Assembly (NCBI GenBank): GCA_001769125.1
Contig: MEOG01000073.1
Span: 14,834 to 78,833, forward strand
Direction of reading: 5' to 3'
DNA from: Bacteroidetes bacterium GWF2_35_48
GTDB lineage: Bacteria; Bacteroidota; Bacteroidia; Bacteroidales; GWF2-35-48
DNA length: 64,000 bases
Shown here in pieces: positions 48,104 through 64,000 of this stretch. The translations under genes were made by a program, and so were the position numbers. Each line of letters opens with the position of its first letter. The first letter of the stretch is position 1. The notes under the pieces were generated by a model. That model was not told the DNA's origin and ran no database searches. It was given only the letters and a program-made list of their open reading frames with translations.

Positions 48104-48118
48104 TTATAATTGTTTTTG

Positions 48119-48239: not shown

Positions 48240-50429
48240 TTGGCAAAGTTTCCCTTTTATAAACAACTTGATGCAATGGATTGCGGACCCTCGAGTCTGC
48301 GCATGATAGCCAAGCATTACGGTCGTTCCTACACACTGCAAACACTGCGCGATAAATGCTATATCACCCGGGAAGGTGTTTCTCTTATGGGAATCAGCGA
48401 TGCAGCGGAAAGCATCGGGTTGCATACAATGGGTGTGCGTATCAACTGGGAAACACTTACTAAAGAAGCACCTCTGCCTTGTATTGCACACTGGAAACAA
48501 AATCACTTTGTTGTAGTATATAAAATTAAAAAAAATAAAGTTTTTGTTGCCGACCCTGCCATTGGGCACATTGAATATTCTCAGAAAGAATTTCTCGAAA
48601 GCTGGCTCAGTACTCGCACAGAAGGAGAAAATAAAGGGATATGCCTTTTAGTGGAACCTACACCTGAATTCTATAAAGACAAAGGAGAAACCATAGATAA
48701 GAGCAATACCTCCTTTTTGTTTTCGTATCTGCGACCACATAAAAAGTTATTACTTCAATTGTTCTTTGGTCTGATTATCGGCAGCCTTATTCAATTAATT
48801 TTTCCATTTCTTACACAGTCGGTTGTTGATTTTGGGATTAGTAATAATAATATTGGATTTGTCTGGTTGATATTAATTGCGCAGCTCACATTGTATATCA
48901 GCCGTACTTCCGTTGAATTTATCCGTAGCTGGATATTACTGCATATCAGTGCGCGTATTAATATTTCACTCATATCTGATTTTCTCGTCAAACTGATGAA
49001 ATTGCCTATATCTTTTTTTGATATTAAAATGATTGGCGACCTGTTACAGCGCATTGGAGACCATTCGAGGATACAAAATTTTCTTACAACTTCCACATTG
49101 GAATTTTTATTTTCATTTGTCAATTTTTTAATATTCGGAGCCATTCTTGCTGTTTACAGCATTAAAATTTTTGCAGTATTTTTGATTGGCACCCTTTTGT
49201 ATATTCTTTGGATTTTTATCTTCCTTAAACGTCGTCGCAGTCTTGATTACAAACGTTTCGCGCAGTTGTCCGAAAATCAAAGCACTTTAATTCAGCTCAT
49301 CACAGGAATGCAGGAAATAAAACTCAATAATTGTGAAAAACAAAAACGCTGGGATTGGGAAAAAGTGCAGGCACGTCTTTTTAAAATAAATATAAAGTCA
49401 TTATCATTGGCGCAATACGAGCAGGCAGGATCTTTATTTTTGAATGAACTTAAAAATATTTTTATCTCTTTTATTGCAGCAAAATTAGTTATTGAGGGAC
49501 AGCTCACGCTTGGAATGATGCTTGCCGTGCAGTATATCATCGGGCAGTTAAATGCGCCGGTGCAACAGCTTATTGGCTTTATTCATGCGCTTCAGGATGC
49601 AAAAATAAGTCTGGAACGTCTTGGAGAAATTCACAAAAAAGAAGACGAAGAACAAACCGAAGAAGGCAGAATGACTGTGATTCCGGAAGAGAGCAATCTC
49701 AATATCAATAATGTTTTTTTTCAGTACGAAGGCCCACATTCTGAAATGGTTTTGCACGATATTAATCTTGTAATTCCTTACAATAAAACCACAGCTATTG
49801 TTGGTGGCAGTGGCAGTGGAAAAACAACATTGGTAAAATTGCTGTTAGGTTTTTATCCGCCCGTGAAAGGAGAAATATTAGTTGGTGGTTTCCGCATAGA
49901 TACAATAAGTACACGCTTATGGAGACAAAACTGTGGCACCGTAATGCAAGACGGTTTTATATTCAGTGATACCATTGCAAAAAACATTGCTGTAAGTGAT
50001 GAAACAATAGACAAAGAGCGACTTGTGCTTGCTGCAAGAACTGCAAATATTCATGAATTTGTCATGTCGCTTCCTTTACGTTTCAATACAAAAATTGGTG
50101 CAGACGGACACGGATTGAGCCAGGGACAAAAGCAAAGGATTTTAATAGCGCGTGCAGTTTATAAAGATCCGGCTTTTCTATTTTTCGATGAAGCAACCAA
50201 TGCGCTCGATGCAAATAATGAAAAAATTATTATGAATAATTTGGATGAATTTTTTAAAAACAGAACTGCTGTTGTGGTTGCTCATAGGTTGAGTACTGTA
50301 AAAAATGCAGACCAGATTGTGGTGTTGGAAAAAGGTCGTATCGTAGAAAAAGGAACGCATGCAGAATTGATTGAAACAAAAGGGGCGTATTATGAACTTG
50401 TAAAAAATCAGTTGGAGATTGGAAGTTAG
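48240..50429 (+). CDS. lanT: bacteriocin/lanthipeptide ABC exporter with N-terminal C39 double-glycine peptidase domain
   Basis: QLDAMDCGPSSLRMIAKHYG (C39 catalytic Cys), HFVVVYK (His), six TMs, Walker A GGSGSGKTT, LSQGQKQR, FFDEATNALD. The start is the TTG at 48240 and is uncertain. Confidence 0.9.
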   Translation: MAKFPFYKQLDAMDCGPSSLRMIAKHYGRSYTLQTLRDKCYITREGVSLMGISDAAESIGLHTMGVRINWETLTKEAPLPCIAHWKQNHFVVVYKIKKNKVFVADPAIGHIEYSQKEFLESWLSTRTEGENKGICLLVEPTPEFYKDKGETIDKSNTSFLFSYLRPHKKLLLQLFFGLIIGSLIQLIFPFLTQSVVDFGISNNNIGFVWLILIAQLTLYISRTSVEFIRSWILLHISARINISLISDFLVKLMKLPISFFDIKMIGDLLQRIGDHSRIQNFLTTSTLEFLFSFVNFLIFGAILAVYSIKIFAVFLIGTLLYILWIFIFLKRRRSLDYKRFAQLSENQSTLIQLITGMQEIKLNNCEKQKRWDWEKVQARLFKINIKSLSLAQYEQAGSLFLNELKNIFISFIAAKLVIEGQLTLGMMLAVQYIIGQLNAPVQQLIGFIHALQDAKISLERLGEIHKKEDEEQTEEGRMTVIPEESNLNINNVFFQYEGPHSEMVLHDINLVIPYNKTTAIVGGSGSGKTTLVKLLLGFYPPVKGEILVGGFRIDTISTRLWRQNCGTVMQDGFIFSDTIAKNIAVSDETIDKERLVLAARTANIHEFVMSLPLRFNTKIGADGHGLSQGQKQRILIARAVYKDPAFLFFDEATNALDANNEKIIMNNLDEFFKNRTAVVVAHRLSTVKNADQIVVLEKGRIVEKGTHAELIETKGAYYELVKNQLEIGS

Positions 50430-50434
50430 AACTT

Positions 50435-50601
50435 GGATGACGCAGATAAACGCACAAGAAAACAATCAACGAAATCAGCGTGAAAAAAAAGAAGAAGCTG
50501 CCGCAGATGACGCAGGTAAACGAAGATTTACGCTGATAGAAAATTATAGAAAAAAATAAGCGAATATCTGCTGCATCCGCAAAATCAGTGTTCAAAAAAC
50601 A
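50435..50601. repeat. two tandem copies of a GATGACGCAGRTAAACG...AATCAGYGTKxAAAAAA element between lanT and hlyD
   Basis: GGATGACGCAGATAAACGCA...AATCAGCGTGAAAAAAAA is followed by GCAGATGACGCAGGTAAACGAA...CATCCGCAAAATCAGTGTTCAAAAAACA. Confidence 0.6.
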
Positions 50602-50635
50602 GAAAACAGAATATACAAAATCAGCATTCAAAAAA

Positions 50636-51973
50636 ATGTCAGAAGAAAGCGAACATATAGAATTACGCAGCGAAGAAGTCCAAGAGATTCTTGGTCATGT
50701 GCCGCCCGGTGTTATCCGTTGGGGAATTTCTGTTATTTCAGCTATTGTAATTCTTCTTTTAGTTGCAAGCTGGTTCATAAAATATCCGGAAATAATTATT
50801 TCTCCTGTAACAGTTACAACACAAAATCCTCCTGTTACATTGGTTTCAAAAATGAACGGAAAAATTTCAAAACTTTTTGTGAAAGATAAGCAACGAATTA
50901 AATCAGGTTCTGTTATTGCTGTGATTGAAAACCCAACAGATTTCAATGATGTTTATACACTCAAACAAAAGCTCGATTCCTTCCGTGTTGTACTTATGAA
51001 AATTCAGATTTCTGAAAACAGGCAAACCGCGCTTTACGCTGTAGATTCAACGCAAAAAGTATTTTTTGATGAAAATCTCAATCTTGGAGAAATGCAGACC
51101 TGGTATGGCGCATTTCTGAAAAGTATGGCAGATTTTTCACATTTTATACATACCGATTATCATCAGAAAAAAATATTTACAGTACAAGACCAGATTGCTA
51201 AGTACAACCAACTTTACACACGTCTGCTGAAACAACAAAATATTCTATCAGAAGAGCTTTCTATTGACAGGCAGCAATTCAGCAGGGATTCTAATCTTTT
51301 CGCAAAAGGTGTTCTTGCAAAAGCAGATTTTGATAAATCGAAATCTTTTCTTTTACAGAAAAGGTATTCTTTTGAAGGATCTAAATCAACACTTTCTAAT
51401 ACACAGATACAAATATCACAATTGCAACAGTCAATTTTTGATTTGCAACAGCAGCATGAAGATCAGAACAAACAATTAAAGCTGGCGCTTTCTCAGGCAT
51501 ACGAAAATCTTATTGGTCAGATAAAAATATGGGAGCAGAATTATGTGTTTACTTCACCTGTTGACGGCATCATAACTTTTACAAAATATTGGAACGAAAA
51601 TCAAAATATTCTTTCCGGGGATAAGGTTGTAACTATCATTCCTGAAGCAGAAAGCCGCTCTATTGGAAAACTTCAATTGCCCATACGTGGTTCGGGGAAA
51701 GTAAAAACCGGTCAGAGCGTAAACATAAAATTAGACAATTATCCTTATATGGAATACGGAATGTTACGGGGAAAAATAGAATCCATCTCATTAGTTTCTT
51801 CAGATGATTCCTATGCGGTAGAAGTAAGCATGCCGAATGGTCTTTTGAGTTCCTACGGAAAAAAACTTGAGTTCAGCCATGATATGAAAGGGACTGCTGA
51901 AATCATTACAGAAGACGAACGTTTGATAATGCGTTTTATTAATCCGCTTCGTGCTTTGCTTGCCGGTAGTTGA
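50636..51973 (+). CDS. HlyD-family membrane fusion / secretion adaptor protein
   Basis: ATG at 50636 (MSEESEH...). One N-terminal TM, a coiled-coil middle, and a beta-barrel C-terminus (GQSVNIKLDNYPY...GKIESIS), typical of bacteriocin HlyD partners. The GTG at 50588 lies inside the repeat element. Confidence 0.8.
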   Translation: MSEESEHIELRSEEVQEILGHVPPGVIRWGISVISAIVILLLVASWFIKYPEIIISPVTVTTQNPPVTLVSKMNGKISKLFVKDKQRIKSGSVIAVIENPTDFNDVYTLKQKLDSFRVVLMKIQISENRQTALYAVDSTQKVFFDENLNLGEMQTWYGAFLKSMADFSHFIHTDYHQKKIFTVQDQIAKYNQLYTRLLKQQNILSEELSIDRQQFSRDSNLFAKGVLAKADFDKSKSFLLQKRYSFEGSKSTLSNTQIQISQLQQSIFDLQQQHEDQNKQLKLALSQAYENLIGQIKIWEQNYVFTSPVDGIITFTKYWNENQNILSGDKVVTIIPEAESRSIGKLQLPIRGSGKVKTGQSVNIKLDNYPYMEYGMLRGKIESISLVSSDDSYAVEVSMPNGLLSSYGKKLEFSHDMKGTAEIITEDERLIMRFINPLRALLAGS

Positions 51974-52014: not shown

Positions 52015-52992
52015 TCACAAAGAAACAACTTTCAAATTATCATCTGCAAGCTCAATTTTACAAGGAAGAAATCCATAAGGGTCACCGTCAAATTCAACAG
52101 CTGCATTGGGATTTCCTTTTATTGATAGAGAAGTACAATAAGTCAGTTCAATAATTTTACTTTTTTTAATTTTTTTTCCGCTGTACACAGAATACAATGC
52201 TTTTGGTAAGTTTAGTAAATTTAATTTCTTAATAGTAAGATTATAAAAATGCCGATCGTCTTGCTGCAAATCGTGATTAACTTTTATTCCTGAAGCAATA
52301 AATCGTGTGATTCCGGCTGAGAGATTAAAGAGTTTTTCAATATGTTTTTTTTCTCCATCTTGTTCGAATATAAAATCGCTGGGTTTATATTTTATTATTG
52401 CTGAAATAAGAGATATAAATGTTCCGACTGCATCGCCCAGGTATTTTCTGATACCGCTGTTGGCCATACTTGCGGTTGCTGCTCCCAATCCGATATTTAC
52501 ACAGCATGCAAAATAATTTACTTCCGTTTCTGATGCAGGAACTTCTTCGATTGCACAACCAATATTTTGAAAATTTTTATTTTTACACAGCAAAATTTTT
52601 CCGATAGGGATATTACGGGTTTTATTTTGGTAAATAGCGTCAAGAGCGGCATTGAGATGTATCGGAATATTGTAAGATTTACAGAAATCAGGACTGGTTC
52701 CCGTGTAAATTACTGCAAAGATTGCATTTGAAATTTTAATCCCTTCCTTATCATAAAAACCATTCAGTACACGATTGATTGTCCCGTCCCCACCAACAGC
52801 AACAATGATATCAAATCCGTTTTGGTTTGCTTTAACTGATAAATCGTACGCATCATCGAGATTTTTTGTAATTGCGTATTCAAATTGTAAATTTTTTTCT
52901 TTGAAAAAAGTAAGAATTTTATCAATTTTATTTTGACTTTTTCCTCCTTTGGAACCGGGGTTGATGATTAAAAAGTAACGTGTGGAAGACAT
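52015..52992 (-). CDS. diacylglycerol-kinase-catalytic-domain lipid kinase (YegS/BmrU family)
   Basis: YFLIINPGSKGGK and IIVAVGGDGTINRVLNG. Confidence 0.85.
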   Translation of the reverse strand: MSSTRYFLIINPGSKGGKSQNKIDKILTFFKEKNLQFEYAITKNLDDAYDLSVKANQNGFDIIVAVGGDGTINRVLNGFYDKEGIKISNAIFAVIYTGTSPDFCKSYNIPIHLNAALDAIYQNKTRNIPIGKILLCKNKNFQNIGCAIEEVPASETEVNYFACCVNIGLGAATASMANSGIRKYLGDAVGTFISLISAIIKYKPSDFIFEQDGEKKHIEKLFNLSAGITRFIASGIKVNHDLQQDDRHFYNLTIKKLNLLNLPKALYSVYSGKKIKKSKIIELTYCTSLSIKGNPNAAVEFDGDPYGFLPCKIELADDNLKVVSL

Positions 52993-53033
52993 TTTGGTTT
53001 TTTCTTGTGTTTTGTTTTAATCGGCAACAACGT

Positions 53034-54197
53034 TTATTTCATAGAGCGTATCAGCATTGCTGCTTTTTGAACAATATCATCCGATAAATTTGCGCCTGTT
53101 ATCAATCTTATTCTGCCTTGTTTTTCGGGTACTGATGGAAAAATAAAAGGGGTTGTAAGGATTTTATTTTTATAAAATTCATAAGCCAATCGTAATGTTT
53201 GTTCAGAGTTTCCGGCTTCTATGGACATAATGGGAGTTTCGCTTTGTGCAATGCTAAATCCTGCTGCAACCAGTGCTTCCTGAATTGTTTTTTTATGGCG
53301 AAACATTCTTTCTTTAATGCTAGAAAAATCTTCTTCAATAATTTCAAGAACTTTGATAATTCCTCCCAGCACCGATGGAACAATCGCAGTAGAATATATA
53401 AGGTGCGAGCTGTTATACCGAAGAAAATCTATGATTGTTTTATTCCCTCCAATCATTCCTCCTGAATTGGCAATGGCTTTTCCGAGTGAAGCAGTATAAA
53501 TACCGTTGAAATCAGAAATACAGCTTATAGCACCTTTTCCTTTATCTCCGATAACGCCTATTCCATGAGAATCATCTATGATAAAAACAGCATTGTATTT
53601 ATTGCAAAGCTCATTAATTTCCTGCAAAGGAGCTATAGAGCCTTCTGTCGAAAAAACAGATTCGGTTACAACAAACACCTGCTCAAAATCATTTGCTTTT
53701 TTTAACAATTCTTCAAGGTGGCTGGTGTTATTATGCAGAAAAGGTCTGAATTTACAAGACGCTGCTTTTATCCCTTCAACAAGCGAAGAATGGGCATAAT
53801 GGTCAACTATTATAAGATCGTTTTTTTCCGTGATTACTTTGAATACTGCATTGTTGGCTTGATAGCACGATGGATAAATAATGCAATCTTCAACACCAGT
53901 GAATTTTGAAAGTAACACAGCGGCCTCCTGAAAAATTTTACATGCACCTCCTGCAATTGGCGTTGCGCAGATGGAGAGTCCATAATCCCGTATTGCTTTT
54001 ATTGATGCTTCTTTTACTCGTATATCATCTGCCAAACCTAAATAATTATTTGTTGCAAGATTAATAAATTCATCGTTTTCTATAAGAAGCGTATTTCCAA
54101 GTGATGATTGCAAAACCGCATAGTAAGGATTAAAACCAAGCCTGTCAACAATAGATGAGTCAAGATAAAGGCGTTTCAGGAATGTTTCGTTTTTCAT
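53034..54197 (-). CDS. alpha-oxoamine synthase family PLP enzyme (serine palmitoyltransferase / AONS / KBL-like)
   Basis: NNYLGL, DHYAHSS, IIDDSHGIGVIGDKGKG, and TASLGKA (PLP Lys). Confidence 0.88.
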   Translation of the reverse strand: MKNETFLKRLYLDSSIVDRLGFNPYYAVLQSSLGNTLLIENDEFINLATNNYLGLADDIRVKEASIKAIRDYGLSICATPIAGGACKIFQEAAVLLSKFTGVEDCIIYPSCYQANNAVFKVITEKNDLIIVDHYAHSSLVEGIKAASCKFRPFLHNNTSHLEELLKKANDFEQVFVVTESVFSTEGSIAPLQEINELCNKYNAVFIIDDSHGIGVIGDKGKGAISCISDFNGIYTASLGKAIANSGGMIGGNKTIIDFLRYNSSHLIYSTAIVPSVLGGIIKVLEIIEEDFSSIKERMFRHKKTIQEALVAAGFSIAQSETPIMSIEAGNSEQTLRLAYEFYKNKILTTPFIFPSVPEKQGRIRLITGANLSDDIVQKAAMLIRSMK

Positions 54198-54341
54198 GGA
54201 TTTGTTTTTGTTTGTATTTATTTTTTAAGTCGGAAGACAAAAGCCAGTGGCTGAACCTGAGCTTGCTGAGCTAAGCCGAAGCGGGTTGCAGAGTTAAGCC
54301 GAAGCCGGTGGCTGAGCCTGTCGAAGCCCCGGATTCGTGGA
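54198..54341. repeat. GC-rich repeat-containing spacer inside the operon (between ACP and AOS genes)
   Basis: Internal direct repeats are AGCCAGTGGCTGAACCTG / AGCCGGTGGCTGAGCCTG and GAGCTAAGCCGAAGC / GAGTTAAGCCGAAGC. It contains GCTGAGCCTGTCGAAGC. Confidence 0.6.
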
Positions 54342-54575
54342 TCAAGCAACCCCGTATTTCTCGAGTTTTTCAATAATATCATTTACCGTTACCAATCCAT
54401 CAATATCTTCATCTTTTATTGTGATGTTAAACTCGTCTTCAACAGCGTTGAGCAGCATAATACGTCCGAAAGAATCCACTTCAAGATCGTCTACCAATCT
54501 GCTTTCCGGTTTAACCTCTGTCTGGTTTTCCATATTTTTAGAAATTACTTTTATTACACGTTCTTTAATTGTCAT
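54342..54575 (-). CDS. acyl carrier protein
   Basis: 77 aa. DLEVDSFGRIML matches the DSL/DSF phosphopantetheine attachment motif. Confidence 0.85.
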   Translation of the reverse strand: MTIKERVIKVISKNMENQTEVKPESRLVDDLEVDSFGRIMLLNAVEDEFNITIKDEDIDGLVTVNDIIEKLEKYGVA

Positions 54576-54580
54576 TTGAT

Positions 54581-55780
54581 TTATTTGTTTTTAAATTTAT
54601 AGCATTTTGTTATCTTTCCACTATCACACATGACGGAGCAAAAGTTGCAATTTATACATTTTGATTTATAATGTAAATTTTCCTGAATTTTTTTTACAAT
54701 ATCCGGTTCGCAAATAAAGGGGCGGCACATTGAAACATAATCTATTCCTGCATTTATTGCTTCATTTATATCATCAAGATTTCTGTAGCCTCCCACTGAA
54801 ATAATCGGAAGTTTCGTATGTTCTCTTGCAATAAGTGCATATTTAATATTATACTTTGATGAAAAAGATTTTATTTGTCTTTTAATAACAGGTGCTGCCA
54901 GTACTTTCCATAAGGTATTATATATTTTTCCATGCCCTTTATAAAAAGGATTTATTTTTAAAATAAGATCGAGAGGTATGTCGCCACGAATTATATTCAG
55001 TGCCACATCCATGGTTCCATAACTAATTTCTAATGCATCAACATTTATTGTGTTGATAAATTGAATCAGATGAATATATTGTTGCTCTGAAAAAGCGAGT
55101 TTTCCGTCAGCACTGCCACTTATTTTAAGAATTACAGGGAAGTCATCCCCGCAATCAATTCTTATTTTTTCTATTACACTTTGCAGAAATGCAGTACCCA
55201 GTCTGGTTTTTTCATCAATTCCAAAAATATCTTTTCTGTTATTAATTGCAGGTAATAAAAATTGATGTATCAGATAACCGTGTGCGGCATGCACCTGAAC
55301 ACCGTCAAATCCTGCTTCTTTAGCCCATTTGGCGCTTTGTGCAAATTGATTAATTATTTCTTTAATTTCAGATGTGGATAAAGTCTCTGGTTTGCTTTTA
55401 AAATAGGGAGAAGCTTTTGATGAGGCACCTCTGACTTTTTGTACCCTTTCATTTATGGTTTGACGACCTGTATGCGCAAGCTGAATAAAAATTTTGCTTC
55501 CATTACGATGAACTTCATCTGTGATTTTTTTGTACAGCATGGCTTTTTCATGATTATCAAAGCCGCCTTGCGCATTCTGCATCGCTTTCCCATCAGGAGC
55601 GACATGCACAAAACCAGTAATGATAAGTCCCGGTTTACCGGCAGAAAGCTCTGAATACATTTTGAAATAATCATTGCCGGGAATACCATCAGGACTGCAT
55701 GCGCCTTCATACGTTGCAGAGCGCACGATACGATTAGTAAGTCTGCAATTTCCAATATATGATTCTTCAAAGGCTTTCAT
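54581..55780 (-). CDS. Old-Yellow-Enzyme-family NADH:flavin oxidoreductase with C-terminal Cys cluster
   Basis: FIQLAHTGRQ, GFDGVQVHAAHGYLIHQFL, and C-terminal CINCNFCSVMC. Confidence 0.85.
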   Translation of the reverse strand: MKAFEESYIGNCRLTNRIVRSATYEGACSPDGIPGNDYFKMYSELSAGKPGLIITGFVHVAPDGKAMQNAQGGFDNHEKAMLYKKITDEVHRNGSKIFIQLAHTGRQTINERVQKVRGASSKASPYFKSKPETLSTSEIKEIINQFAQSAKWAKEAGFDGVQVHAAHGYLIHQFLLPAINNRKDIFGIDEKTRLGTAFLQSVIEKIRIDCGDDFPVILKISGSADGKLAFSEQQYIHLIQFINTINVDALEISYGTMDVALNIIRGDIPLDLILKINPFYKGHGKIYNTLWKVLAAPVIKRQIKSFSSKYNIKYALIAREHTKLPIISVGGYRNLDDINEAINAGIDYVSMCRPFICEPDIVKKIQENLHYKSKCINCNFCSVMCDSGKITKCYKFKNK

Positions 55781-56757
55781 TATGCTTTTGTATCTGAATA
55801 AAGTTTAAACAGGAATTCAACGAGCACATAAGATAAGATGAAAAGTACCATTGCCAGTTCCTGATTGAATAAGGCGATGAGCGCACATTGACTGCAACAG
55901 CAAGCTCTGAAATTTACCGATAGAGAATAATACGCTTCTTTGCCAACAGGATTTCTGAAATATAAAATTCCGGTCCAGAGTTGCAGAAAAAATGCCACGA
56001 GAGAAAGTATCAGAAATACGTTGTTTGCTCGTGCTACAATAAAATCACCAAAGTAAAAAAATAAAAACAAGGAAGCAGGAACGAGTGAAAATGCAAGCGC
56101 AAAATAACGGGCTTTGTGTAATCCGAATTTAACAACAATCGTATTTTTTCCCGCAAGTTTGTCGCCTTTGTAATCTTTAAAATATGTGTAGAATGTCATG
56201 ATCGCATTCAATGCAAAAATTATGAGTAATACTGAAACCCTGCTTGATGTAAAATAGGGTTCGGAGGTTGGACCGCTTGCAAGGAAGCCGTATATCGTGC
56301 ATTGTGTGAGCATCAATCCGAAAATAATATTGCCAAGAATGCCGTAGCCTTTTGCATATTCATAAATTACATTGAGAATTACACCGGCAAATAAGGGTAT
56401 CAGTGCCAGCTTTTCTAAATAAAACCATGTAATCAGAGCAGTAGTAGTAATCAGAACGATAGATACAAGCAGGGCGATATTTTTATTCAACTCCCCTGTA
56501 ACCATTGGTCGGTTAGGAGCATTAATCTTATCTTCTTTTAATCCCAGATAATCATTTACAATTTGATTGATACCCCAACTTAAAAAGAGCATTGCTAATA
56601 TAACAGAAGTTTTAAGAGTAGATGGAATGATTTCAACCGTATGAAAATTTTCAGCAATATGCCTGTAAAAAGCAACACCCACAAAGCCTGCTATCCCTGT
56701 GATAAAAGAATAATAAAGGCGCATTGATTTTATGTAGGCTTTCGTAAATGTTAGCAT
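55780..56757 (-). CDS. UbiA-family integral-membrane prenyltransferase
   Basis: About 8-9 TMs. First Asp-rich motif NQIVNDYLGLKEDKINAPNRP and second motif YTYFKDYKGDKLAGKNT. TAATG overlap with the downstream OYE gene. Confidence 0.85.
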   Translation of the reverse strand: MLTFTKAYIKSMRLYYSFITGIAGFVGVAFYRHIAENFHTVEIIPSTLKTSVILAMLFLSWGINQIVNDYLGLKEDKINAPNRPMVTGELNKNIALLVSIVLITTTALITWFYLEKLALIPLFAGVILNVIYEYAKGYGILGNIIFGLMLTQCTIYGFLASGPTSEPYFTSSRVSVLLIIFALNAIMTFYTYFKDYKGDKLAGKNTIVVKFGLHKARYFALAFSLVPASLFLFFYFGDFIVARANNVFLILSLVAFFLQLWTGILYFRNPVGKEAYYSLSVNFRACCCSQCALIALFNQELAMVLFILSYVLVEFLFKLYSDTKA

Positions 56758-56769
56758 GGTATAAATTCT

Positions 56770-58086
56770 TTATAATTTATAGACTTTTTCGTAGAATTTA
56801 CTTTGTCTGCCTCTTCTCCAGTTCTTAAAAAGATGTTCTGATTTCTCGGGAGAAAGTGGTAATGACTTCAAATTATTTTCTTTAAATTCTTTATAAATTT
56901 CACACGAATATTTTTCACAAATCCAGCAGTCACCGCCACCTGCAAAACTTTTTCTCATTTTTTTATATATCTCGTCAAAATTTCCGGTTGTAATATTACC
57001 ATAAGATATATTTACAAATTCGCAGGGTTGCACATCTCCTTTTGCATTGATGTAAAAGCGGTCAGTTCCTCCGGCGGTACATCCAAACATTTCTTCACTT
57101 TCTTCAATAATTTGCGCGCTGATTGAAGGATATTTATTTTTTGAAACATCAAGATTGTAATGCATTACTTTTTGCTTTACCGTTTTCAGATCTTCTTCGT
57201 TGAAATCATTTTCAATACCTGATAAATATCCGCCTGCTGGCTTGGGTTTAATGATTTGGATCAGCGTTATTCCACGGTCTTTAGTAAGCTCCATTATTTT
57301 TTCAAAAGTTCCGTCAAAAAAAGAATTTTTCATGAGGCAGGTATTGATTGCTGCTGCAAAACCGGCTTCCCTGCACATTTGTATTCCCTGAATCATATCG
57401 TCCCAAGCGGTTTCTTTGCCCATAAATTCATTAAATGATTTTTTTTCCGGGGTATGAAGCGAAAACATGAAACCTGCAATATTATCTTGTTTCAATTCTT
57501 TGAGTTTTTCAATACTCATGCCATCTCCTGTTGAGTTAATCCATATTTCTGAACGATGGTCAATGGCTCTGCATACTTGCTTTAACCTTTCAAAAACAAG
57601 AAAAGGTTCGCCTCCTTCAATATTGAAAAAAGCAATCCCCATATCCTGCAATTTTTTTATTGTGGAAATTAAAATATTTATGTCCATGTCTTTTCCGATG
57701 TCGTGTTTCTGATAACAATGAGGACAACTGAAACGACAGGCAGAAGTTACAGAAATAAGTACGGTTGTGCAGGGCATGATATCTTTAAAAACCGCAAATT
57801 TATTGCAGGCTGTAAAAAATGCTTTTGATGGAAAAGCAGGCACGTACAAATCAATTTTTGTCCCCTGCCGTGTTCGTGCAAACTTATTATGCTGAATGGA
57901 TGAAAGAAAAAAATTAAGTCTCCGCAACACCCTGATGAATGTAACAGGACTTATTATAAAAAGCATCATTTTGAAATAAAATGTGTAAAAAACAACGAAT
58001 TTTACTTTCAGATTAAATCTTGATTTTTGTGTTGCTGTTAAATTTTTTTCCTGTATCATTTGTTTTATTTTTATAAACTGTGGCAT
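56770..58086 (-). CDS. radical SAM protein with N-terminal membrane segment and C-terminal auxiliary Cys motif
   Basis: SACRFSCPHC (CxxxCxxC), GGEPFL, and later GCTAGGTDRFYINAKGDVQPC...CWICEKYSC. Confidence 0.85.
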   Translation of the reverse strand: MPQFIKIKQMIQEKNLTATQKSRFNLKVKFVVFYTFYFKMMLFIISPVTFIRVLRRLNFFLSSIQHNKFARTRQGTKIDLYVPAFPSKAFFTACNKFAVFKDIMPCTTVLISVTSACRFSCPHCYQKHDIGKDMDINILISTIKKLQDMGIAFFNIEGGEPFLVFERLKQVCRAIDHRSEIWINSTGDGMSIEKLKELKQDNIAGFMFSLHTPEKKSFNEFMGKETAWDDMIQGIQMCREAGFAAAINTCLMKNSFFDGTFEKIMELTKDRGITLIQIIKPKPAGGYLSGIENDFNEEDLKTVKQKVMHYNLDVSKNKYPSISAQIIEESEEMFGCTAGGTDRFYINAKGDVQPCEFVNISYGNITTGNFDEIYKKMRKSFAGGGDCWICEKYSCEIYKEFKENNLKSLPLSPEKSEHLFKNWRRGRQSKFYEKVYKL

Positions 58087-58103
58087 CGCCCCATGGGGCG
58101 ATG
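58084..58103 (-). promoter_or_regulatory. perfect 20-bp GC-rich palindrome overlapping the rSAM start codon
   Basis: CATCGCCCCATGGGGCGATG is its own reverse complement. The 3'-arm ATG (58086-58084) is the annotated start. Confidence 0.6.
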
Positions 58104-58110
58104 TTACAGT

Positions 58111-59139
58111 TTATATATAGGCATTTTGTTTATACCATTCCACTGTTTTTTTTATGCCCTGTTCAAGACTTATTTCACTTGTAAAACCTAATTCTTTTTT
58201 TGCTTTTTCCACGCTGAATTCAAGATTATCGTAAAACATATTTATTCTGCTACGGGAGAGCAAAGGTGGATTTTTTATTTTAAAAATTGTATAAAAAAGT
58301 TCTAATAAAAAACCGATAGGATATATTAATCCTTTGGGAATATCTGCCGGTTTTTTTTTGTTTATTTCTGTGCAAAATAATTCGTATATCTTGTGCATTA
58401 ATACGGTTTCTGAATTTCCTGCAATATATTTATTGATTCCTGTGGGTTGTTTTTCATAAACGATATAAAAAAAACGTGCAAGATCATCTGCGTGAATTAC
58501 CGGAAATTTATTTTTTTTACTTCCGGGAAGATAGGGCATTCCTGATTTTACGGTTTTTAAATATTCAAAAAATCCCGTGTTAAATTCTCGTTCTCCGTAG
58601 ACCCAAACAGGCTCTACGACTGTAAGATTAAGATTGTTTTTTTCTGCGATTTCAATAGCTTTTTTAGTTAATTCTGTTTTTGTATCTCTGTAGAAATTCA
58701 TTGCAGAAGGAAATATTGCATCAAGAAAATATGGGTAGTGGGAGTTGCAGAGACTATTTTCATTTTTAATAGTAAGTGAATTTTCTTCACCATAAGATGA
58801 AATTGATCCTGTTATGATAATGTTTTTAATGCCGCAATCAACTGCAGCTCTCATGACATTTTCTGTTCCTGTAACATTGGTTTTATAGAAGTCGTCATAT
58901 CTTCCCCAGTCTTTTGCAAGGCCTGCAATATGAATTACAAAATTTGCATTTTTAAAGGCGTTGTTCAAGCTTGTATAGTCGCTGATATCTCCTTTAATGT
59001 ATTCAATATCCTGTTTAAATTTTACAGCCTCAGGGTCTCTAACAAGACATGCAAAATCTACATTCCTTTTGTGAAAATATTCTGCCACATGGCTTCCAAT
59101 GAATCCGGCAACGCCTGTTATGATTAGTTTTTTCTGCAA
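58111..59139 (-). CDS. NAD-dependent epimerase/dehydratase-family SDR
   Basis: ITGVAGFIGSHV Rossmann motif and the YRDTK (YxxxK) catalytic motif. Confidence 0.88.
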   Translation of the reverse strand: MQKKLIITGVAGFIGSHVAEYFHKRNVDFACLVRDPEAVKFKQDIEYIKGDISDYTSLNNAFKNANFVIHIAGLAKDWGRYDDFYKTNVTGTENVMRAAVDCGIKNIIITGSISSYGEENSLTIKNENSLCNSHYPYFLDAIFPSAMNFYRDTKTELTKKAIEIAEKNNLNLTVVEPVWVYGEREFNTGFFEYLKTVKSGMPYLPGSKKNKFPVIHADDLARFFYIVYEKQPTGINKYIAGNSETVLMHKIYELFCTEINKKKPADIPKGLIYPIGFLLELFYTIFKIKNPPLLSRSRINMFYDNLEFSVEKAKKELGFTSEISLEQGIKKTVEWYKQNAYI

Positions 59140-59210
59140 AATATATTTTGTTGTTTTTTAAATCAAAATTAACGATTCAATCATAAGATATCATAATTAT
59201 TAATTGAATT

Positions 59211-60254
59211 TTAAATTGCAAATTTCATAAGAATATAAAACATATTTTTTTCAGGCTGTAGCGTGAATGACGTTGGTAACACGTAGTTCCGCAGATAGCT
59301 TACTGTAACATAATTATATTTTGCGAAAGGTAGATCTAGGCACATCCTCCAGCCAAAACCGTTTGTTTTGTGATAGCATAAGCCAGCACCATATAGAAAT
59401 GCAACTTCTGCAAGCACATAAGCATTGTCGTTATTATTCAATTCACCTTTGAGTGTCTCTCCAATTGTTTCATCAACGCTGAAATACTTACCCAGTCTGG
59501 CTTTTATCTGACCGTGCAAATCTTTAGCATCACCAAGGATATAGATAAATTCATATCCGGTATCATAGTCATAGCCAAATGGATTTTTAATTCTTTCTGT
59601 ATATAACTCACTTGAAATTTTCAGGTAATTTAAACCTGCAAAAAGTCCGAATTGAGCCAGAGATTTAAAATCATAACTTGGAATTGCATTGACTGAAAGA
59701 CTAAATTTCTTAATAGGAATATCAATATAAAGGTATGGTGATAATGTAAAACCACGTTTTGTGTTCCAGATAGTAGTATCAGGTGTAACTGTTTTAAAAA
59801 GATTATTACCGGCACGGAAAGAACCGCCTAAAAATATTTTATAAAAACGGGAATGAATACTTACTCCTGCAGAGCCTGTAAGCGCAGCATTGTCCGCATC
59901 TGTAATGCCCGCATAAGGTCTTTTATAAGCAAGATAACCAAAATCGAAATTTAAAAAACGGAGAAAAGGAGAATTTTTTGTTACAAATGGCACGCTTCCA
60001 ACCATGCCCCCGAATAATTTTGTTTTTGAGAACATTTGGGCTTCCAGCGCCCACCTGTAATTTTTCGGCGGGTCAATTTTTCCGGTTTTATCTGCTACCG
60101 AGTCCAACGTTGTAGGAACAACAATATTTTTTCTGAACATCCGATTATAAAATTCATCATTAAGCTGAACTTCCTGACCCATAATGTGAGTAAGGGATAA
60201 AACTGTCAATATTAAAATAACAGCAATTTTTTTGAGGTATAAATTCATAAGCAA
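59211..60254 (-). CDS. hypothetical secreted, outer-membrane beta-barrel-like protein encoded inside the operon
   Basis: 347 aa. Signal peptide (LSLTHIMGQE), alternating aromatic strands, C-terminal ILMKFAI. No motif recognised. Confidence 0.45.
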   Translation of the reverse strand: MLMNLYLKKIAVILILTVLSLTHIMGQEVQLNDEFYNRMFRKNIVVPTTLDSVADKTGKIDPPKNYRWALEAQMFSKTKLFGGMVGSVPFVTKNSPFLRFLNFDFGYLAYKRPYAGITDADNAALTGSAGVSIHSRFYKIFLGGSFRAGNNLFKTVTPDTTIWNTKRGFTLSPYLYIDIPIKKFSLSVNAIPSYDFKSLAQFGLFAGLNYLKISSELYTERIKNPFGYDYDTGYEFIYILGDAKDLHGQIKARLGKYFSVDETIGETLKGELNNNDNAYVLAEVAFLYGAGLCYHKTNGFGWRMCLDLPFAKYNYVTVSYLRNYVLPTSFTLQPEKNMFYILMKFAI

Positions 60255-60277
60255 TTGGTCATTAAATATTAATAAAT

Positions 60278-61546
60278 CTATACAAATTTTTTAAACAGCA
60301 CCGCTGAATTATGTCCACCAAAACCGTATGATGTAGACAAAGCGTAATTAATATCAGCAGAACAACTTTTGTTAATGATGTTTAATCCTTCAATATTGTT
60401 TTCAGAGAGATTCAGATGTACACATTGTTGTTTAATAGATATTGCTGTAACAGCTGCTTCAATTGCAGCGCTGGCACCAATAGAGTGTCCCAGTATGCTT
60501 TTCGTTGAGTTTATCAATGGTTGGTTTTTTACAGAACCAAATATTTCTTTTATTGCTGCTGCTTCAATGGAATCGTTATTGGTTGTAGCAGTCCCATGTG
60601 CATTCAGATAATCTATTTTTTTATTTTCAGATGCTTGCCGTAGTAATTTTTTTATTTGCATTCCGGATTCTTCCATCTGCAAAATATTATGATGATCGCT
60701 GTTAAAAAAACAATCTGTAATTTCAGCGTAAATTTGAGCGCCTCTTGCAAGCGCATGTTCCATTTCTTCAAGAATAAGAATACAGCCTGCTCCTTCTGAA
60801 AACAAAAAACCACTTCGGTTTTCTGAAAAAGATTCAGGTTGTCCATTTTTTGAAAGCGTGAGTGCACCAAGCATATCAAAACCACGCATCATTGCGCCGA
60901 ATTCATCCATCAGGCATTCAACACCTCCTGTTATCATAAATTTCGATTCTCCATTTTTTATTTTGCCGAATGCTTCTCCTATAGCATGATTTCCTGATGC
61001 ACAAGAAGCGTTAATCGTATGACATTGATCACTGGTTCCAAAAATTATGGAAATCCAGGCTGCGACAGAATTTGGCATTGTTAGAGGAATAACCATCCTG
61101 TTGTAACGATAGTCTTTTAATTCTTCATTTTGAAGGTGATGCGCTGCATGCTGAACGTAGGAGGTAAAAGCGGTTTTAAGAGAACTTATTCCAACTCCGA
61201 TTATTATTCCGGGGCTTTCATTTTCTTCAATCTGAAAACCGGTTTTATTATTTTCTTTTAACTGAAAACCTGCATCCAGTAAAGCTTCTTTTGTACATAC
61301 GATTCCAATTTTTACATTTTCTTCCATCAGTAAATTCAGTTTGTTATGAAAACCATAATCACCAATATTTATTTTTGGAAAGGGTACAAAAAAACGCGAA
61401 CGGAAGGTATAATTTTTCTCAAAGCAATCTGGAACAGAAGCTACAAAAATAGTTCCTTCTAAAAGATTTTTAAATAAGCAGTCTTTCGTGTTTGAATTTC
61501 CTGAAATTGCAGAAATGCCTGTAATTACTACTCTTTTTCTTTCCAT
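60278..61546 (-). CDS. beta-ketoacyl-ACP synthase (KAS I/II type, Cys-His-His)
   Basis: INASCASGNHAIGEA (Cys), NSDHHNI (His), LNAHGTATTNND (His), GHSIGASAA, and C-terminal SYGFGGHNSAVLF. Confidence 0.9.
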   Translation of the reverse strand: MERKRVVITGISAISGNSNTKDCLFKNLLEGTIFVASVPDCFEKNYTFRSRFFVPFPKINIGDYGFHNKLNLLMEENVKIGIVCTKEALLDAGFQLKENNKTGFQIEENESPGIIIGVGISSLKTAFTSYVQHAAHHLQNEELKDYRYNRMVIPLTMPNSVAAWISIIFGTSDQCHTINASCASGNHAIGEAFGKIKNGESKFMITGGVECLMDEFGAMMRGFDMLGALTLSKNGQPESFSENRSGFLFSEGAGCILILEEMEHALARGAQIYAEITDCFFNSDHHNILQMEESGMQIKKLLRQASENKKIDYLNAHGTATTNNDSIEAAAIKEIFGSVKNQPLINSTKSILGHSIGASAAIEAAVTAISIKQQCVHLNLSENNIEGLNIINKSCSADINYALSTSYGFGGHNSAVLFKKFV

Positions 61547-61548
61547 AG

Positions 61549-62547
61549 TTATTTTAGTAAGTTTTGTAGTGTATTTATATAATCTTTTACATTGTTAAAA
61601 TCCCGTGCAGAAATATCAAAATGGTTCAAATCAAGAATGTTTTTTTCTTTTTTTAGAAGGAAATTCTGATCTTTTGTAAGTACTCCAATTTTGTAAAATT
61701 TCAAAAATGATTTTTCTGTGTCAGCTAAAAATTCTGCTTCATTTTTTTTCGGAACAGTAAATAAAAGTTCATATTCTCCACATTCAGCAATCATAAGCAT
61801 TTCAACAGGTTTTCTTAAAAGTTTGGCAGCTTTTTGCGCGATGTTGTGATACGGAATATTTTCAACAAGAAATCCTGTTTGATTGCAATTCGCAAGATGA
61901 ATAAGGGAATGACAAAGACCATCGCTTGTGTCAATGCACGACGAAGCGTATTTTTTAATGAATGCAGATTCAGCAAGTCTGGGAATTAATTTTATTTTAT
62001 ATGTATTCAGAAAGGGCGCTAATAGCTTATTGTCAGAATAAATGTTCATCATTGCTTCAAAGTTGCCTGCACCAATCGAGCCACTCAAATAAAGAAGGTC
62101 TCCTTCACTTGCTCCTGAGCGCATCAGGGGTTTATCGGTTTCTCCAAGCACAACTGCTGTATAGCTCCATTGCTCTGCTGTCCCAAAATCGCCGCCAATA
62201 AAATTTATTTTAAATTTTTGTAACGAATGCTTTATTCCTTTTGTAAATTCATTTAAAAATTTCTCATCCCATTCTTTGCTTATTACAAGGCTGTGTGAAT
62301 AATAAAGCGGTTTTCCACCGCAAGCCAGAACATCGCTTATTGCAGCAACCGAAAGATTGTAACCTAAAATAAAAGGATCATTTTCTCTGAATTTATCTTC
62401 TGCCGAAAATCCATCTATTGTAAAAAGAAGAAATTTATCTCCCCATTCAATAATCTCGCAATCGGCTTCAAAGGGCTTATTTAATTGAGTTCCTCCTTTC
62501 GCTAAAATGCTGCAAATGGCTTGAATGCTTTGTTTTTCGTTGAGCAT
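61549..62547 (-). CDS. AIR-synthase-related (PurM/ThiL/HypE superfamily) ATP-dependent enzyme
   Basis: LFTIDGFSAED, ISDVLACGG, FIGGDFG and SGASEGDLLYLSGSIGAGN follow the ThiL/PurM-like pattern (by eye). Confidence 0.75.
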   Translation of the reverse strand: MLNEKQSIQAICSILAKGGTQLNKPFEADCEIIEWGDKFLLFTIDGFSAEDKFRENDPFILGYNLSVAAISDVLACGGKPLYYSHSLVISKEWDEKFLNEFTKGIKHSLQKFKINFIGGDFGTAEQWSYTAVVLGETDKPLMRSGASEGDLLYLSGSIGAGNFEAMMNIYSDNKLLAPFLNTYKIKLIPRLAESAFIKKYASSCIDTSDGLCHSLIHLANCNQTGFLVENIPYHNIAQKAAKLLRKPVEMLMIAECGEYELLFTVPKKNEAEFLADTEKSFLKFYKIGVLTKDQNFLLKKEKNILDLNHFDISARDFNNVKDYINTLQNLLK

Positions 62548-62719: not shown

Positions 62720-64000
62720 TTATTTAAACGTTGAAATCATTTTGTATTCATCATCGTTTAACCCATATAACTCTGAAATAATAATATCAATTTCATTAAG
62801 CAAATAATTTATTCTTCTTTGTGTTTGTTCAGATTTTGGTTGTTGGTGTAATTCTAATAAAATATCAACTTGTTTAATAATTTGATCATGCTTATTTTTA
62901 TTTTTAGTATTAATATTTGGTATTGGTAATTGAGACAATTGACCCATTAATATTTGAGGAAAACCTTGTGCATTTGTTAATAATTTTTGCTTTAAATAAA
63001 AAGTTAAAACATTTGAATTTAAAACACCTAATAAATATTTTAGATTTAATGATTTTGATGTAGCTATATAGATTGTACTTTCAATTAATTCTTGCTGATC
63101 ACTATAAGTTGCACAAAGTATATTACCGGTTCTACGTATTAATAAACGAGGTGTTTGCAGATGCTTTTCTAGTTTATTAGTGCCACCAATAATTTTAAGA
63201 TTATTATAAGTAGCATAATTTGTATAGAAATGATTATACCTACTCATGTTTTTACCAAGCAAAAATGGATAATTTGTTTTTGACTTTTTACTCTCCATCA
63301 CACTTTCTCTATCTTGCACAACCATTCCTTTGTTCATAATTACCATATCTCCCATCATTGTTGATTGCTTTTGTATTTTTTTCAAAATAGAATCAAATTG
63401 ATTATTAATTTGTGTCTCCCAAATTTCATTTTTTGACTTGATATTTATTTTTTTTGATTCTTTAATTTTACCGAATTTATTAATGATTTTTAACTCTGTC
63501 GATGAAGTGTGTTTTTTATTTTCTGCCACAAATACTGTAGTCCCAATTGTAGCCTGTTCAAAAACAAAATGGTCAAAAACTGCAATTGTTTTTATATTCA
63601 AATTTTCAATTAATGTATTTCTTACAATATTATTGCTTGATGTTGTTAATAAGGCTTCAGGAACTATAAAGGAAAAATAATTTGATTGAAATTTTGCAAA
63701 TTTTTCAATAAATAACTGAAATAAATTTTTGGAACTACCTCCATGAATACTTAAATATTTTTGATTATAGTATTCTAAAATATTACTATTAGTATTATTC
63801 TTTGTTAATTTTAAATATGGAGGATTGCCAATAATACAATCAAAACCTTCTTTATTGAAAATTTGTTTAAATTCACTTTCCCAATCAAAAGCATTTATAT
63901 TTTTTTCACTTATTGTTTCAAAACAAAATTCATTATTGAAAAAATCATTACCAATTAAAGAATTTCCACATTTTATATTAAAGTCTAAATTTGGTAAAAC
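62720..64000 (-). CDS. Eco57I/type IIG-like N6-adenine DNA methyltransferase with TaqI-like C-terminal specificity domain (5' part outside window)
   Basis: The minus-strand frame is open from 64000 with no stop: VLPNLDFNIKCGNSLIG...EGFDCIIGNPPYLKL... (NPPY motif IV) continues into the 293-aa ORF. The M at 63601 in the ORF track is an internal TTG. Confidence 0.8.
   Translation of the reverse strand, partial: VLPNLDFNIKCGNSLIGNDFFNNEFCFETISEKNINAFDWESEFKQIFNKEGFDCIIGNPPYLKLTKNNTNSNILEYYNQKYLSIHGGSSKNLFQLFIEKFAKFQSNYFSFIVPEALLTTSSNNIVRNTLIENLNIKTIAVFDHFVFEQATIGTTVFVAENKKHTSSTELKIINKFGKIKESKKINIKSKNEIWETQINNQFDSILKKIQKQSTMMGDMVIMNKGMVVQDRESVMESKKSKTNYPFLLGKNMSRYNHFYTNYATYNNLKIIGGTNKLEKHLQTPRLLIRRTGNILCATYSDQQELIESTIYIATSKSLNLKYLLGVLNSNVLTFYLKQKLLTNAQGFPQILMGQLSQLPIPNINTKNKNKHDQIIKQVDILLELHQQPKSEQTQRRINYLLNEIDIIISELYGLNDDEYKMISTFK

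Follow-up and report, generated by a model that had tools for sequence, protein, structure and literature searches.

We analyzed a 64,000-nucleotide stretch of DNA (hereafter the window) from Bacteroidetes bacterium GWF2_35_48 (contig MEOG01000073.1, positions 14,834–78,833), which carries, at window positions 52015–62547, ten tightly packed open reading frames (ORFs) that all lie on the minus strand. The genes follow one another in the order AIRS (a ThiL-like kinase), β-ketoacyl-ACP synthase (KAS), a predicted barrel protein without a Pfam match, short-chain dehydrogenase/reductase (SDR), radical SAM enzyme (rSAM), UbiA-type transferase, old-yellow-enzyme-type reductase (OYE), acyl carrier protein (ACP), α-oxoamine synthase (AOS), and DAGK_cat kinase. 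An initial annotation of this DNA had claimed eleven genes; we counted ten, the gene calls on identical contigs that also occur in metagenome assemblies (ENA, JGI, and Logan) likewise gave ten, and the 144 nt that separate the ACP and AOS genes contain no credible eleventh gene. The common strand was evident from the ORF list and the junctions quoted in that annotation were correct: the UbiA stop and the OYE start share a single base (TAATG, at 55780), 2 nt separate the AIRS and KAS genes (61546/61549), and 5 nt separate the OYE and ACP genes (54575/54581). The remaining intergenic gaps measure 23, 71, 24, 12, 144, and 41 nt. A Pfam profile search confirmed every domain that had been named, all above the gathering score (AIRS and AIRS_C, ketoacyl-synt and Ketoacyl-synt_C, Epimerase, Radical_SAM and SPASM, UbiA, Oxidored_FMN, PP-binding, Aminotran_1_2, and DAGK_cat and YegS_C). 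The counts of sigma-70 promoter and terminator patterns equaled those in shuffled sequences, in a scan that does not cover Bacteroidota promoters, and Rfam gave no match in the vicinity of the window's cassette. Judged from gene packing and synteny, the genes appear to form a tightly packed operon.

We scanned one genome per GTDB species (185,579 species representatives), obtained matches in 159 species, and fetched 80 loci; the ten window proteins were compared by tblastn with 82 non-redundant related loci from other genomes. Nine of the ten genes, those for the ThiL-like kinase, KAS, the extended SDR, rSAM, UbiA, OYE, ACP, AOS, and the DAGK_cat kinase, make up a recurrent cassette: all nine were found on one strand, within a span of 8.7–10.4 kb and at 40–63% identity, in 52 of the 82 loci. 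The incomplete loci were nearly all short contigs, and only eight loci of at least 15 kb lacked one or two genes. This arrangement is far beyond chance and does not reflect an accidental series of paralogs. The initial annotation had proposed that the genes form a coherent functional unit and had named a lack of conserved synteny in other genomes as the finding that would speak against it; the gene-neighborhood survey decisively contradicted such a lack, and we regard it as practically certain that the cassette is one conserved biosynthetic unit.

The carriers span at least 12 phyla, and the hosts are anaerobes. Among the Bacillota are many Desulfosporosinus, Acetivibrio, Herbivorax, Petroclostridium, Heliobacteriaceae, and Halobacteroidaceae; the other carriers belong to the Bacteroidota, Ignavibacteria, Omnitrophota, Auribacterota, Cloacimonadota, Neomarinimicrobiota, Spirochaetota, Acidobacteriota, Sumerlaeota, Desulfobacterales, and Planctomycetales. 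Cultured carriers include Desulfosporosinus lacus, D. hippei, D. fructosivorans, Acetivibrio alkalicellulosi, a Herbivorax sp., and Petroclostridium sp. X23. The nine families stand side by side in organisms as different as D. fructosivorans, an Auribacterota metagenome-assembled genome (MAG), and a Saprospiraceae MAG. In most phyla the gene order is UbiA-OYE-ACP-AOS-DAGK-AIRS-KAS-SDR-rSAM, and in the Bacteroidota, the Ignavibacteria, and the window it is AIRS-KAS-SDR-rSAM-UbiA-OYE-ACP-AOS-DAGK; the two orders are circular permutations of the same gene content. Because pairwise distances within the eight large families were highly correlated (r 0.83–0.97), the nine-gene block appears to have been inherited or transferred as a unit. 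Clustering of flanking ORFs revealed nothing else conserved across phyla beside the cassette except an XRE-type regulator in 15 loci. In these 15 cassettes the XRE-type helix-turn-helix gene directly precedes UbiA (for example, at 1247–1708 of locus L007); where listed, the loci belong to Desulfosporosinus, HGW-Firmicutes, and Bacillota MAGs, and the gene is absent from the window. It is a candidate regulator of the pathway. No conserved acyltransferase was found in the clustered flanks of the 80 loci. In public databases the cassette proteins carry generic or incorrect names ("radical SAM protein," "thiamine-monophosphate kinase," "hypothetical").

The few departures from the complete set fell into a pattern. 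KAS was gone from L020, L074, L085, and L089, and both KAS and ACP were gone from L084 (Ignavibacteriaceae) and L090, such that KAS was missing from six otherwise intact cassettes overall. UbiA and OYE were jointly missing from L058 (Neomarinimicrobiota), and OYE alone was missing from L053. Thus, AOS-DAGK-AIRS-SDR-rSAM is the invariant core, KAS and ACP behave as a replaceable supply module that is dispensable in some lineages, and UbiA and OYE behave as a terminal pair, in keeping with the overlap between the UbiA stop codon and the OYE start codon. Two of these loci represent reduced seven-gene variants, L058 without UbiA and OYE and L084 without KAS and ACP. In addition, one gene call (P0226) fused the ThiL-like AIRS and SDR domains; it comes from a 2.3-kb contig and is possibly an artifact.

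The core protein that would initiate the pathway is the pyridoxal phosphate (PLP)-dependent AOS (387 aa, 53034–54197; Pfam Aminotran_1_2 4.2e-41, 142 bits against a cut-off of 19.7). Enzymes of this kind convert acyl thioesters into α-amino ketones. Both the SLGKA motif with the PLP lysine and the Asp/His motif DDSHG were conserved in 64 orthologs, placing the protein in the AOS superfamily. Its scores against the NCBIfam models of the named families all remained below the cut-offs: 286 bits for bioF (cut-off 426), 278 for Kbl (460), 236 (CFB; 640), 183 (500), and 133 (670) for the three serine palmitoyltransferase (Spt) models, 207 for CqsA (428), and 174 for ALAS (339). Among PDB sequences it scored 193 bits with KBL, 180 with Thermus BioF/KBL, 177 with Sphingobacterium Spt, and 148 with E. 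coli BioF, with CqsA (134) and cysteate acyltransferase (131) at the weaker end. In a tblastn search of 72,556 plasmids, identity to annotated Kbl, BioF, and HemA reached at most about 32%, compared with 44–61% identity to the cassette orthologs. Since all named families stayed below threshold and the plasmid identities lie below those of the orthologs, the AOS would constitute a subfamily of its own outside Spt, BioF, Kbl, CqsA, and ALAS, set apart by scores and identities. A firm grouping with BioF/Kbl, which the initial annotation had considered as a way in which its proposal might fail, was not seen in the NCBIfam cut-offs, the PDB scores, or the plasmid identities.

The KAS is a FabF-like enzyme of the KAS II type (422 aa, 60278–61546; Pfam ketoacyl-synt and Ketoacyl-synt_C) that scored 274 bits against NCBIfam fabF (cut-off 494) and matched the prodigiosin PigJ model weakly (2e-15, 56 bits, cut-off 900). 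Its catalytic triad consists of the Cys of NASCASG, the His of NAHGTAT, and the His of ILGHSIGA, all conserved in 63 orthologs. All motifs quoted in the initial annotation are present in the translations, but "SDHH," which had been assigned to this triad, lies outside it and is not conserved in the orthologs. The dedicated ACP (77 aa, 54342–54575; PP-binding 3.7e-08) scored 58 bits against the NCBIfam ACP models (cut-off 71), and the DS of its phosphopantetheine site was invariant in 43 orthologs. The SDR (342 aa, 58111–59139; Pfam Epimerase 2.6e-30) is of the extended, Epimerase/3β-HSD type. Its best NCBIfam matches were HpnA (122 bits, cut-off 368) and OleD-type 2-alkyl-3-oxoalkanoate reductases, its PDB neighbors were 3wj7, kavalactone reductase, and sterol-4-α-carboxylate 3-dehydrogenase, and both GxxGxxG and YxxxK were conserved among orthologs.

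The cassette encodes two putative kinases of different folds. In this lineage the operon begins with a gene (61549–62547, 332 aa) for a ThiL-like kinase with the AIR-synthase (PurM) fold, recognized by Pfam as AIRS (1.2e-15) and AIRS_C (4.6e-08) and found in 65 loci. Its best NCBIfam matches were thiamine-phosphate kinase models (156 bits, 1.2e-45, against a cut-off of 301, and 144 against 184), and its best PDB matches were ThiL structures (1.4e-22), with PurM at merely 8e-4. The designation "PurM-like ATPase" in the initial annotation was thus right about the fold, but the protein is specifically ThiL-like and not PurM-like, as far as these matches indicate. It does not qualify as thiamine-phosphate kinase ThiL itself: the scores are below threshold and thiamine genes are not conserved nearby. 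No TPP riboswitch was detected in the window, and Rfam showed no riboswitch of any kind near seven other cassettes. ThiL turns a phosphate monoester into a diphosphate (thiamine monophosphate to thiamine diphosphate). The last gene of the operon (52015–52992, 325 aa) encodes a predicted soluble lipid kinase with the DAGK_cat/YegS_C fold (DAGK_cat 2.7e-22), whose GGDGT motif was invariant among orthologs. All NCBIfam lipid-kinase models scored it below threshold, and the nearest structure was S. aureus DgkB (7.6e-16); the likeness to sphingosine and ceramide kinases drawn in the initial annotation gave way to a closer one to DgkB/YegS.

UbiA-family enzymes use diphosphate substrates. The cassette member (325 aa, 55780–56757; Pfam UbiA 87 bits, cut-off 34) is a DGGGPS/chlorophyll-synthase-like integral membrane transferase; it has several hydrophobic segments, belongs to the UbiA superfamily, and is the sole multi-pass membrane protein of the set. 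Against the NCBIfam DGGGPS models it scored 66 bits (cut-off 296) and 61 bits (353). In the PDB, a profile built from 15 cassette UbiA proteins matched only two enzymes, Methanocaldococcus jannaschii DGGGPS (2.6e-10) and chlorophyll a synthase (1.3e-7); aromatic prenyltransferases did not appear at E ≤ 10. From these matches it follows, therefore, that the cassette UbiA probably lies on the O-prenylating DGGGPS/chlorophyll-synthase branch, which alkylates oxygen nucleophiles. It is not a DGGGPS proper: the scores are below threshold, and the GGGPS/PcrB family is not conserved in the flanks. In its first Asp-rich motif, NDxxGxxxD (residues 68–76), the middle Asp is replaced by an invariant Gly, and the same site is Asp in UbiA-superfamily enzymes, including DGGGPS in the alignment; a nearly invariant Glu directly precedes the final Asp of this motif, and the second motif, DYxGD, is intact. 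The altered motif may reflect an unusual diphosphate substrate.

The partner of UbiA in the terminal pair is an OYE-type FMN ene-reductase (399 aa, 54581–55780; Oxidored_FMN 1.6e-56, 192 bits), with TOYE, FadH, and YqjM as PDB neighbors. The HTGRQ motif, the HAAHGYL motif (His/His/Tyr), and a C-terminal CxxCxxCxxxC cluster were conserved in 63 orthologs, supporting assignment to the OYE ene-reductases. The protein is much shorter than the matched Fe-S flavoenzymes (approximately 640–670 aa) and has no counterpart of the FAD/NAD(P)H domains present in FadH and BaiCD. Because the His/His/Tyr motif and the Cys cluster are kept while the FAD/NAD(P)H domains are absent, this architecture suggests that the enzyme reduces a carbonyl-conjugated alkene with electrons delivered via an Fe-S cluster.

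The rSAM protein (438 aa, 56770–58086; Pfam Radical_SAM, Fer4_12, and SPASM) consists of an N-terminal helical extension of about 100 aa, the radical SAM domain, and a C-terminal twitch or partial SPASM region, which scored 25 bits against a SPASM cut-off of 21.5. Invariant residues were C117/C121/C124, C336 and C355 (in C336-x13-G-x4-C355), and C390, and C387 was frequent; with fewer auxiliary cysteines than the seven of a full SPASM domain, the protein is a twitch-like member of the SPASM/twitch subgroup. At E ≤ 1e-10 the protein has 941 relatives, among which the best 120 share 53–60% identity across phyla, and the best NCBIfam matches were NirJ2/AhbD. The AF2 (AlphaFold2) model (pLDDT 84.5) had a generic set of Foldseek neighbors comprising SkfB, SuiB, viperin, BlsE, anSME, and MoaA. 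The initial annotation had envisaged a C-C cross-linked product, and lipid coupling by a tetraether synthase (GDGT-MAS/Tes) was considered accordingly; this idea was dropped, as the tetraether synthase (7tol) ranked only 39th among the structural neighbors, with TM scores of 0.39/0.35.

Together, these features suggest that the cassette is an AOS-initiated amino-lipid operon with an unprecedented extension consisting of UbiA, two kinases, rSAM, and OYE. In the pathway that we propose, the dedicated ACP, which the FabF-like KAS would load or extend, would supply an acyl thioester, and the AOS would join it to an amino acid to yield an α-amino ketone with a long-chain-base-like skeleton, which the extended SDR would reduce to a vicinal amino alcohol. 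The DAGK_cat kinase could then phosphorylate a lipid hydroxyl, and the ThiL-like enzyme could add a second phosphate to produce a lipid diphosphate. UbiA would use a diphosphate substrate to attach an alkyl or prenyl chain through O (or N); the donor might be this home-made lipid diphosphate, or else the phosphorylated amino alcohol might receive the chain from a cellular polyprenyl diphosphate, in the manner of geranylgeranylglyceryl phosphate (GGGP). The Fe-S OYE, translationally coupled to UbiA, would reduce a carbonyl-conjugated C=C bond, and the twitch-type rSAM might oxidize or dehydrate the amino-alcohol part by radical chemistry or carry out a C-C step on it; possibly, rSAM and OYE create and then remove an unsaturation. 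We consider the resulting product class, a phosphorylated and alkylated or prenylated amino-lipid, a serious possibility that stops a little short of being probable. A bolder version, which we judge rather unlikely, is a new glycerol-free class of membrane lipid in anaerobic bacteria in which a long-chain amino alcohol, formed from an amino acid and a fatty acyl-ACP, becomes a diphosphate by the action of the DAGK kinase and then of the first known ThiL-family lipid-phosphate kinase, with a second hydrocarbon chain ether- or N-linked by UbiA. Such lipids would be a sphingoid-based bacterial counterpart of archaeal ether lipids in which rSAM and OYE make and then remove an unsaturation needed for transfer, an elaboration that we hold to be rather unlikely as well.

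Several observations weigh against the amino-lipid assignment. Each step is derived from family membership, and none of the ten proteins reached the curated cut-off of any NCBIfam model (release 20, June 2026). We know of no ThiL-family lipid-phosphate kinase. A 1-hydroxyl for the kinase is present only if the amino acid used by the AOS is serine. To our knowledge, isolated prenyl double bonds are not substrates of OYE enzymes, and an activated alkene must be postulated. The rSAM step is a guess, given the generic neighbors of the model, and the N-terminal hydrophobic segment of this protein, considered as a membrane anchor, is not conserved as a transmembrane helix (median Kyte–Doolittle value 1.28). 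The family-specific invariant Gly of the first UbiA motif is without explanation, and neither a conserved prenyl diphosphate synthase nor a conserved transporter was found in the clustered flanks.

One alternative starts from the same head enzymes. A 3-oxoacyl thioester made by KAS and ACP could be joined by the AOS to glycine or serine and cyclized to an N-heterocycle, an alkyl-hydroxypyrrole or pyrroline, as in prodiginine synthesis; the combination of KAS, ACP, AOS, and reductase parallels the logic of PigJ/PigH and RedL/RedK, and the KAS does match PigJ, but with 56 bits against a cut-off of 900. KAS, or KAS and ACP, are also absent from the six otherwise intact cassettes, such that a dedicated 3-oxoacyl-ACP is not obligatory, and we consider this origin of the product unlikely. 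The later steps of that route, which we find similarly unlikely, would be ring closure or activation by the PurM-fold protein and prenylation of the ring by UbiA, resulting in a membrane redox cofactor or a signal of anaerobes. Ring-closing AIR synthase does belong to the PurM-fold enzymes, and the confinement of the cassette to anaerobes, which might need special electron carriers, would agree with such a product; yet the AIRS protein resembles ThiL (1e-45) far more closely than PurM (8e-4 in the PDB), and the UbiA profile matches the O-prenylating DGGGPS and chlorophyll synthase alone, with aromatic prenyltransferases absent from the matches. Taking the best NCBIfam names at face value, namely bioF/Kbl for AOS, thiL for AIRS, NirJ2/AhbD for rSAM, and chlorophyll synthase for UbiA, one could instead see a pathway to a water-soluble, vitamin-like cofactor related to biotin, thiamine, or tetrapyrroles, with a BioF/Kbl/ALAS-type AOS, a true ThiL (as the public annotation "thiamine-monophosphate kinase" has it), and a BioB- or NirJ-like rSAM. 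All of these matches fall far below the cut-offs, however, and the identity of the AOS to annotated Kbl, BioF, and HemA is low. Neither BioA/BioD/BioB, ThiE/ThiG, nor tetrapyrrole genes are conserved in the flanks, the seven cassettes examined have no riboswitch nearby, a core cofactor would be expected in more than 159 of 185,579 species representatives, and an integral-membrane UbiA together with a lipid-kinase fold indicates a lipid; the cofactor pathway is accordingly quite improbable.

Two further explanations concern the surroundings of the cassette and the literature. In the window, a class I lanthipeptide cluster (43785–51973, plus strand) is convergent to the cassette, and the cassette might act as its lipid-tailoring module, giving a lipidated ribosomally synthesized and post-translationally modified peptide (RiPP) such as a lipolanthine. 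Adjacency to the genes for LanC, LanB, a C39-ABC exporter, and HlyD would favor this idea, as would the RiPP maturases SkfB and SuiB among the nearest structures of the rSAM, but the latter likeness is that of a generic SPASM core (TM about 0.5, 16–18% identity). Moreover, the two clusters lie on opposite strands, and lanthipeptide genes stood beside the cassette in none of the 82 other loci; this explanation is effectively refuted and retains only the slightest probability. It is also conceivable, if improbable, that the pathway has already been characterized in a publication beyond our search, given that carriers include studied, cultured Desulfosporosinus and Acetivibrio strains. Against this, our full-text literature search, which left most subscription-journal papers outside its coverage, returned no description of the gene combination, in line with the initial annotation, which knew of no described locus carrying it. 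NCBIfam release 20 likewise holds no equivalog for any of the nine proteins, and the public names assigned to them are generic or incorrect.

Comparison of the proposed amino-lipid pathway with known systems showed partial overlap with each. Ceramide synthesis of the Caulobacter type employs Spt, a dedicated ACP, bCerS, and CerR (PMC11087976, PMC9386255), and bacterial ceramide synthesis requires bCerS (PMC11087976). Like this pathway, the cassette encodes an AOS-family enzyme together with a dedicated ACP and a Rossmann reductase that depends on NAD(P), and the DAGK_cat fold of the cassette kinase recalls ceramide and sphingosine kinases. Conversely, a bCerS-type N-acyltransferase is absent from the ten genes and from the conserved flank families of the 80 loci, an acyl-ACP synthetase is lacking, and the AOS is not an Spt (Sphingobacterium Spt, 177 bits, stands below KBL, 193). 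With respect to CerR, the ACP is present and the SDR is of the extended Epimerase type nearest to HpnA/OleD, in a comparison that contained no CerR reference sequence. UbiA, rSAM, the Fe-S OYE, the ThiL-like kinase, and KAS are foreign to ceramide synthesis. The description "sphingoid-base-type enzymes" in the initial annotation therefore holds as a resemblance and no further: the AOS falls far below the three Spt models, the bCerS-type acyltransferase is absent, and the kinase is nearest to DgkB/YegS. Capnine/sulfonolipid synthesis involves cysteate synthase, CapB/SulA, and CapC (PMC9304779). This system shares with the cassette an AOS and an SDR reductase that make a sphingoid-like base in Bacteroidota, but the match to cysteate-C-fatty acyltransferase (131 bits) is weaker than that to KBL (193 bits), cysteate synthase is missing from the cassette, and most carriers are not Bacteroidota.

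Among known UbiA enzymes, that of the cassette is most similar to DGGGPS of archaeal-type ether lipid synthesis (GGGPS and DGGGPS). DGGGPS O-prenylates a lipid whose head is a phosphate and whose secondary hydroxyl is free, and GGGP would have a structural analog in a phosphorylated amino alcohol. The cassette, in contrast, lacks GGGPS, glycerol-1-phosphate dehydrogenase, and CarS, and its first UbiA motif is altered. Plant phytol salvage proceeds via the phytol kinase VTE5 and the phytyl-phosphate kinase VTE6 to VTE2/ChlG. The relay that we propose for the cassette would follow the same logic, from alcohol to monophosphate to diphosphate to a UbiA enzyme, although the cassette kinases have unrelated folds (DAGK_cat and ThiL/PurM). 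The prodiginine modules PigJ/PigH and RedL/RedK resemble the cassette in that KAS, ACP, AOS, and reductase are encoded together, but they are multidomain proteins; the cassette proteins stand alone, KAS and ACP are dispensable in some cassettes, and genes for pyrrole-2-carboxyl and bipyrrole formation are absent. Finally, archaeal-type lipid genes including DGGGPS have been described in Cloacimonadota (PMC7852524). We considered whether the cassette is identical to these genes, and it is not: that DGGGPS adjoins GGGPS at a different locus.

The cassette represents an orphan pathway; its public names are misleading, and the comparative evidence for it is unusually clean. We found no described lipid or cofactor pathway that combines sphingoid-base head chemistry with UbiA, two kinases of different folds, rSAM, and an Fe-S ene-reductase. 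If the product is a membrane lipid, the cassette would define a new lipid class, possibly a new biomarker for anoxic environments, as well as a new function for the ThiL fold and a wider substrate range for DGGGPS-like UbiA enzymes. If it is the glycerol-free lipid class outlined above, it could account for some of the orphan amino- or ether-lipids of anoxic sediments. The cultured carriers make the question directly testable.

The tenth gene of the operon (59211–60254, 347 aa), situated between the KAS and SDR genes, encodes an orphan signal-peptide protein that is predicted to form a 16-strand outer-membrane β-barrel. Pfam and NCBIfam yielded no match, a search of 5.8 billion clustered proteins returned only the protein itself, and four relatives were found among 1.84 billion representatives (a five-member family). 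The AF2 model from the five-sequence alignment (pLDDT 66) had roughly 16 strands, and its Foldseek neighbors were all outer-membrane barrels and porins. Hence, the barrel-like protein that the initial annotation had counted as part of the operon does appear to be a β-barrel, but it has no counterpart in the 82 related loci, as judged by tblastn, and stands outside the pathway. We rejected it as a part of the cassette: other cassettes contain no ortholog, and its relative occurs in an unrelated context. These comparisons indicate that the barrel gene is a lineage-specific insert outside the conserved cassette. The nearest relative (41% identity; L091, 5137–6150) is flanked by the genes for a 559-aa protein without a Pfam match and a Fib_succ_major-domain protein, with a two-component system upstream of it, a context unrelated to the cassette.

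The gap between the ACP and AOS genes is a 144-nt G+C-rich non-coding spacer (54198–54341) inside the otherwise A+T-rich operon. It contains two direct repeats, GCTTCGGCTTA and TCAGCCAC, each present twice, and no copy of the spacer was found elsewhere in the window or in the other loci. An additional gene at this position was rejected, as there are just short overlapping ORFs of 22–54 aa and none of them is called on the identical contigs. A structured RNA was also rejected, with a folding z score of −1.03 relative to shuffled sequences and no Rfam match.

In the convergent lanthipeptide cluster, all genes of which are on the plus strand, LanC (43785–44978) is followed by the N-terminal domain of LanB (44997–47210), a separate C-terminal LanB piece (47444–48103), a C39-peptidase ABC exporter (48240–50429), and HlyD (50588–51973). 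A 71-aa Lant_dehydr_C fragment is called between the LanB pieces on the identical contigs, and the dehydratase appears to be split. On the other side, 172 nt upstream of the cassette and on the same strand, lies a type IIG MmeI-like restriction-modification gene with a TaqI_C domain (62720–64000, minus strand), which is identical to L001. Its frame is open to base 64000 and runs past the end of the window; the ORF list gives it 293 aa, and on the identical contigs the product has 920 aa. Farther away, a DUF805b RNA motif (Rfam RF02914, 45 bits; 41351–41385, plus strand) lies upstream of an ORF (41701–43749, plus strand) for a 682-aa BNR/YCF48-like repeat protein with a type IX secretion C-terminal sorting domain.

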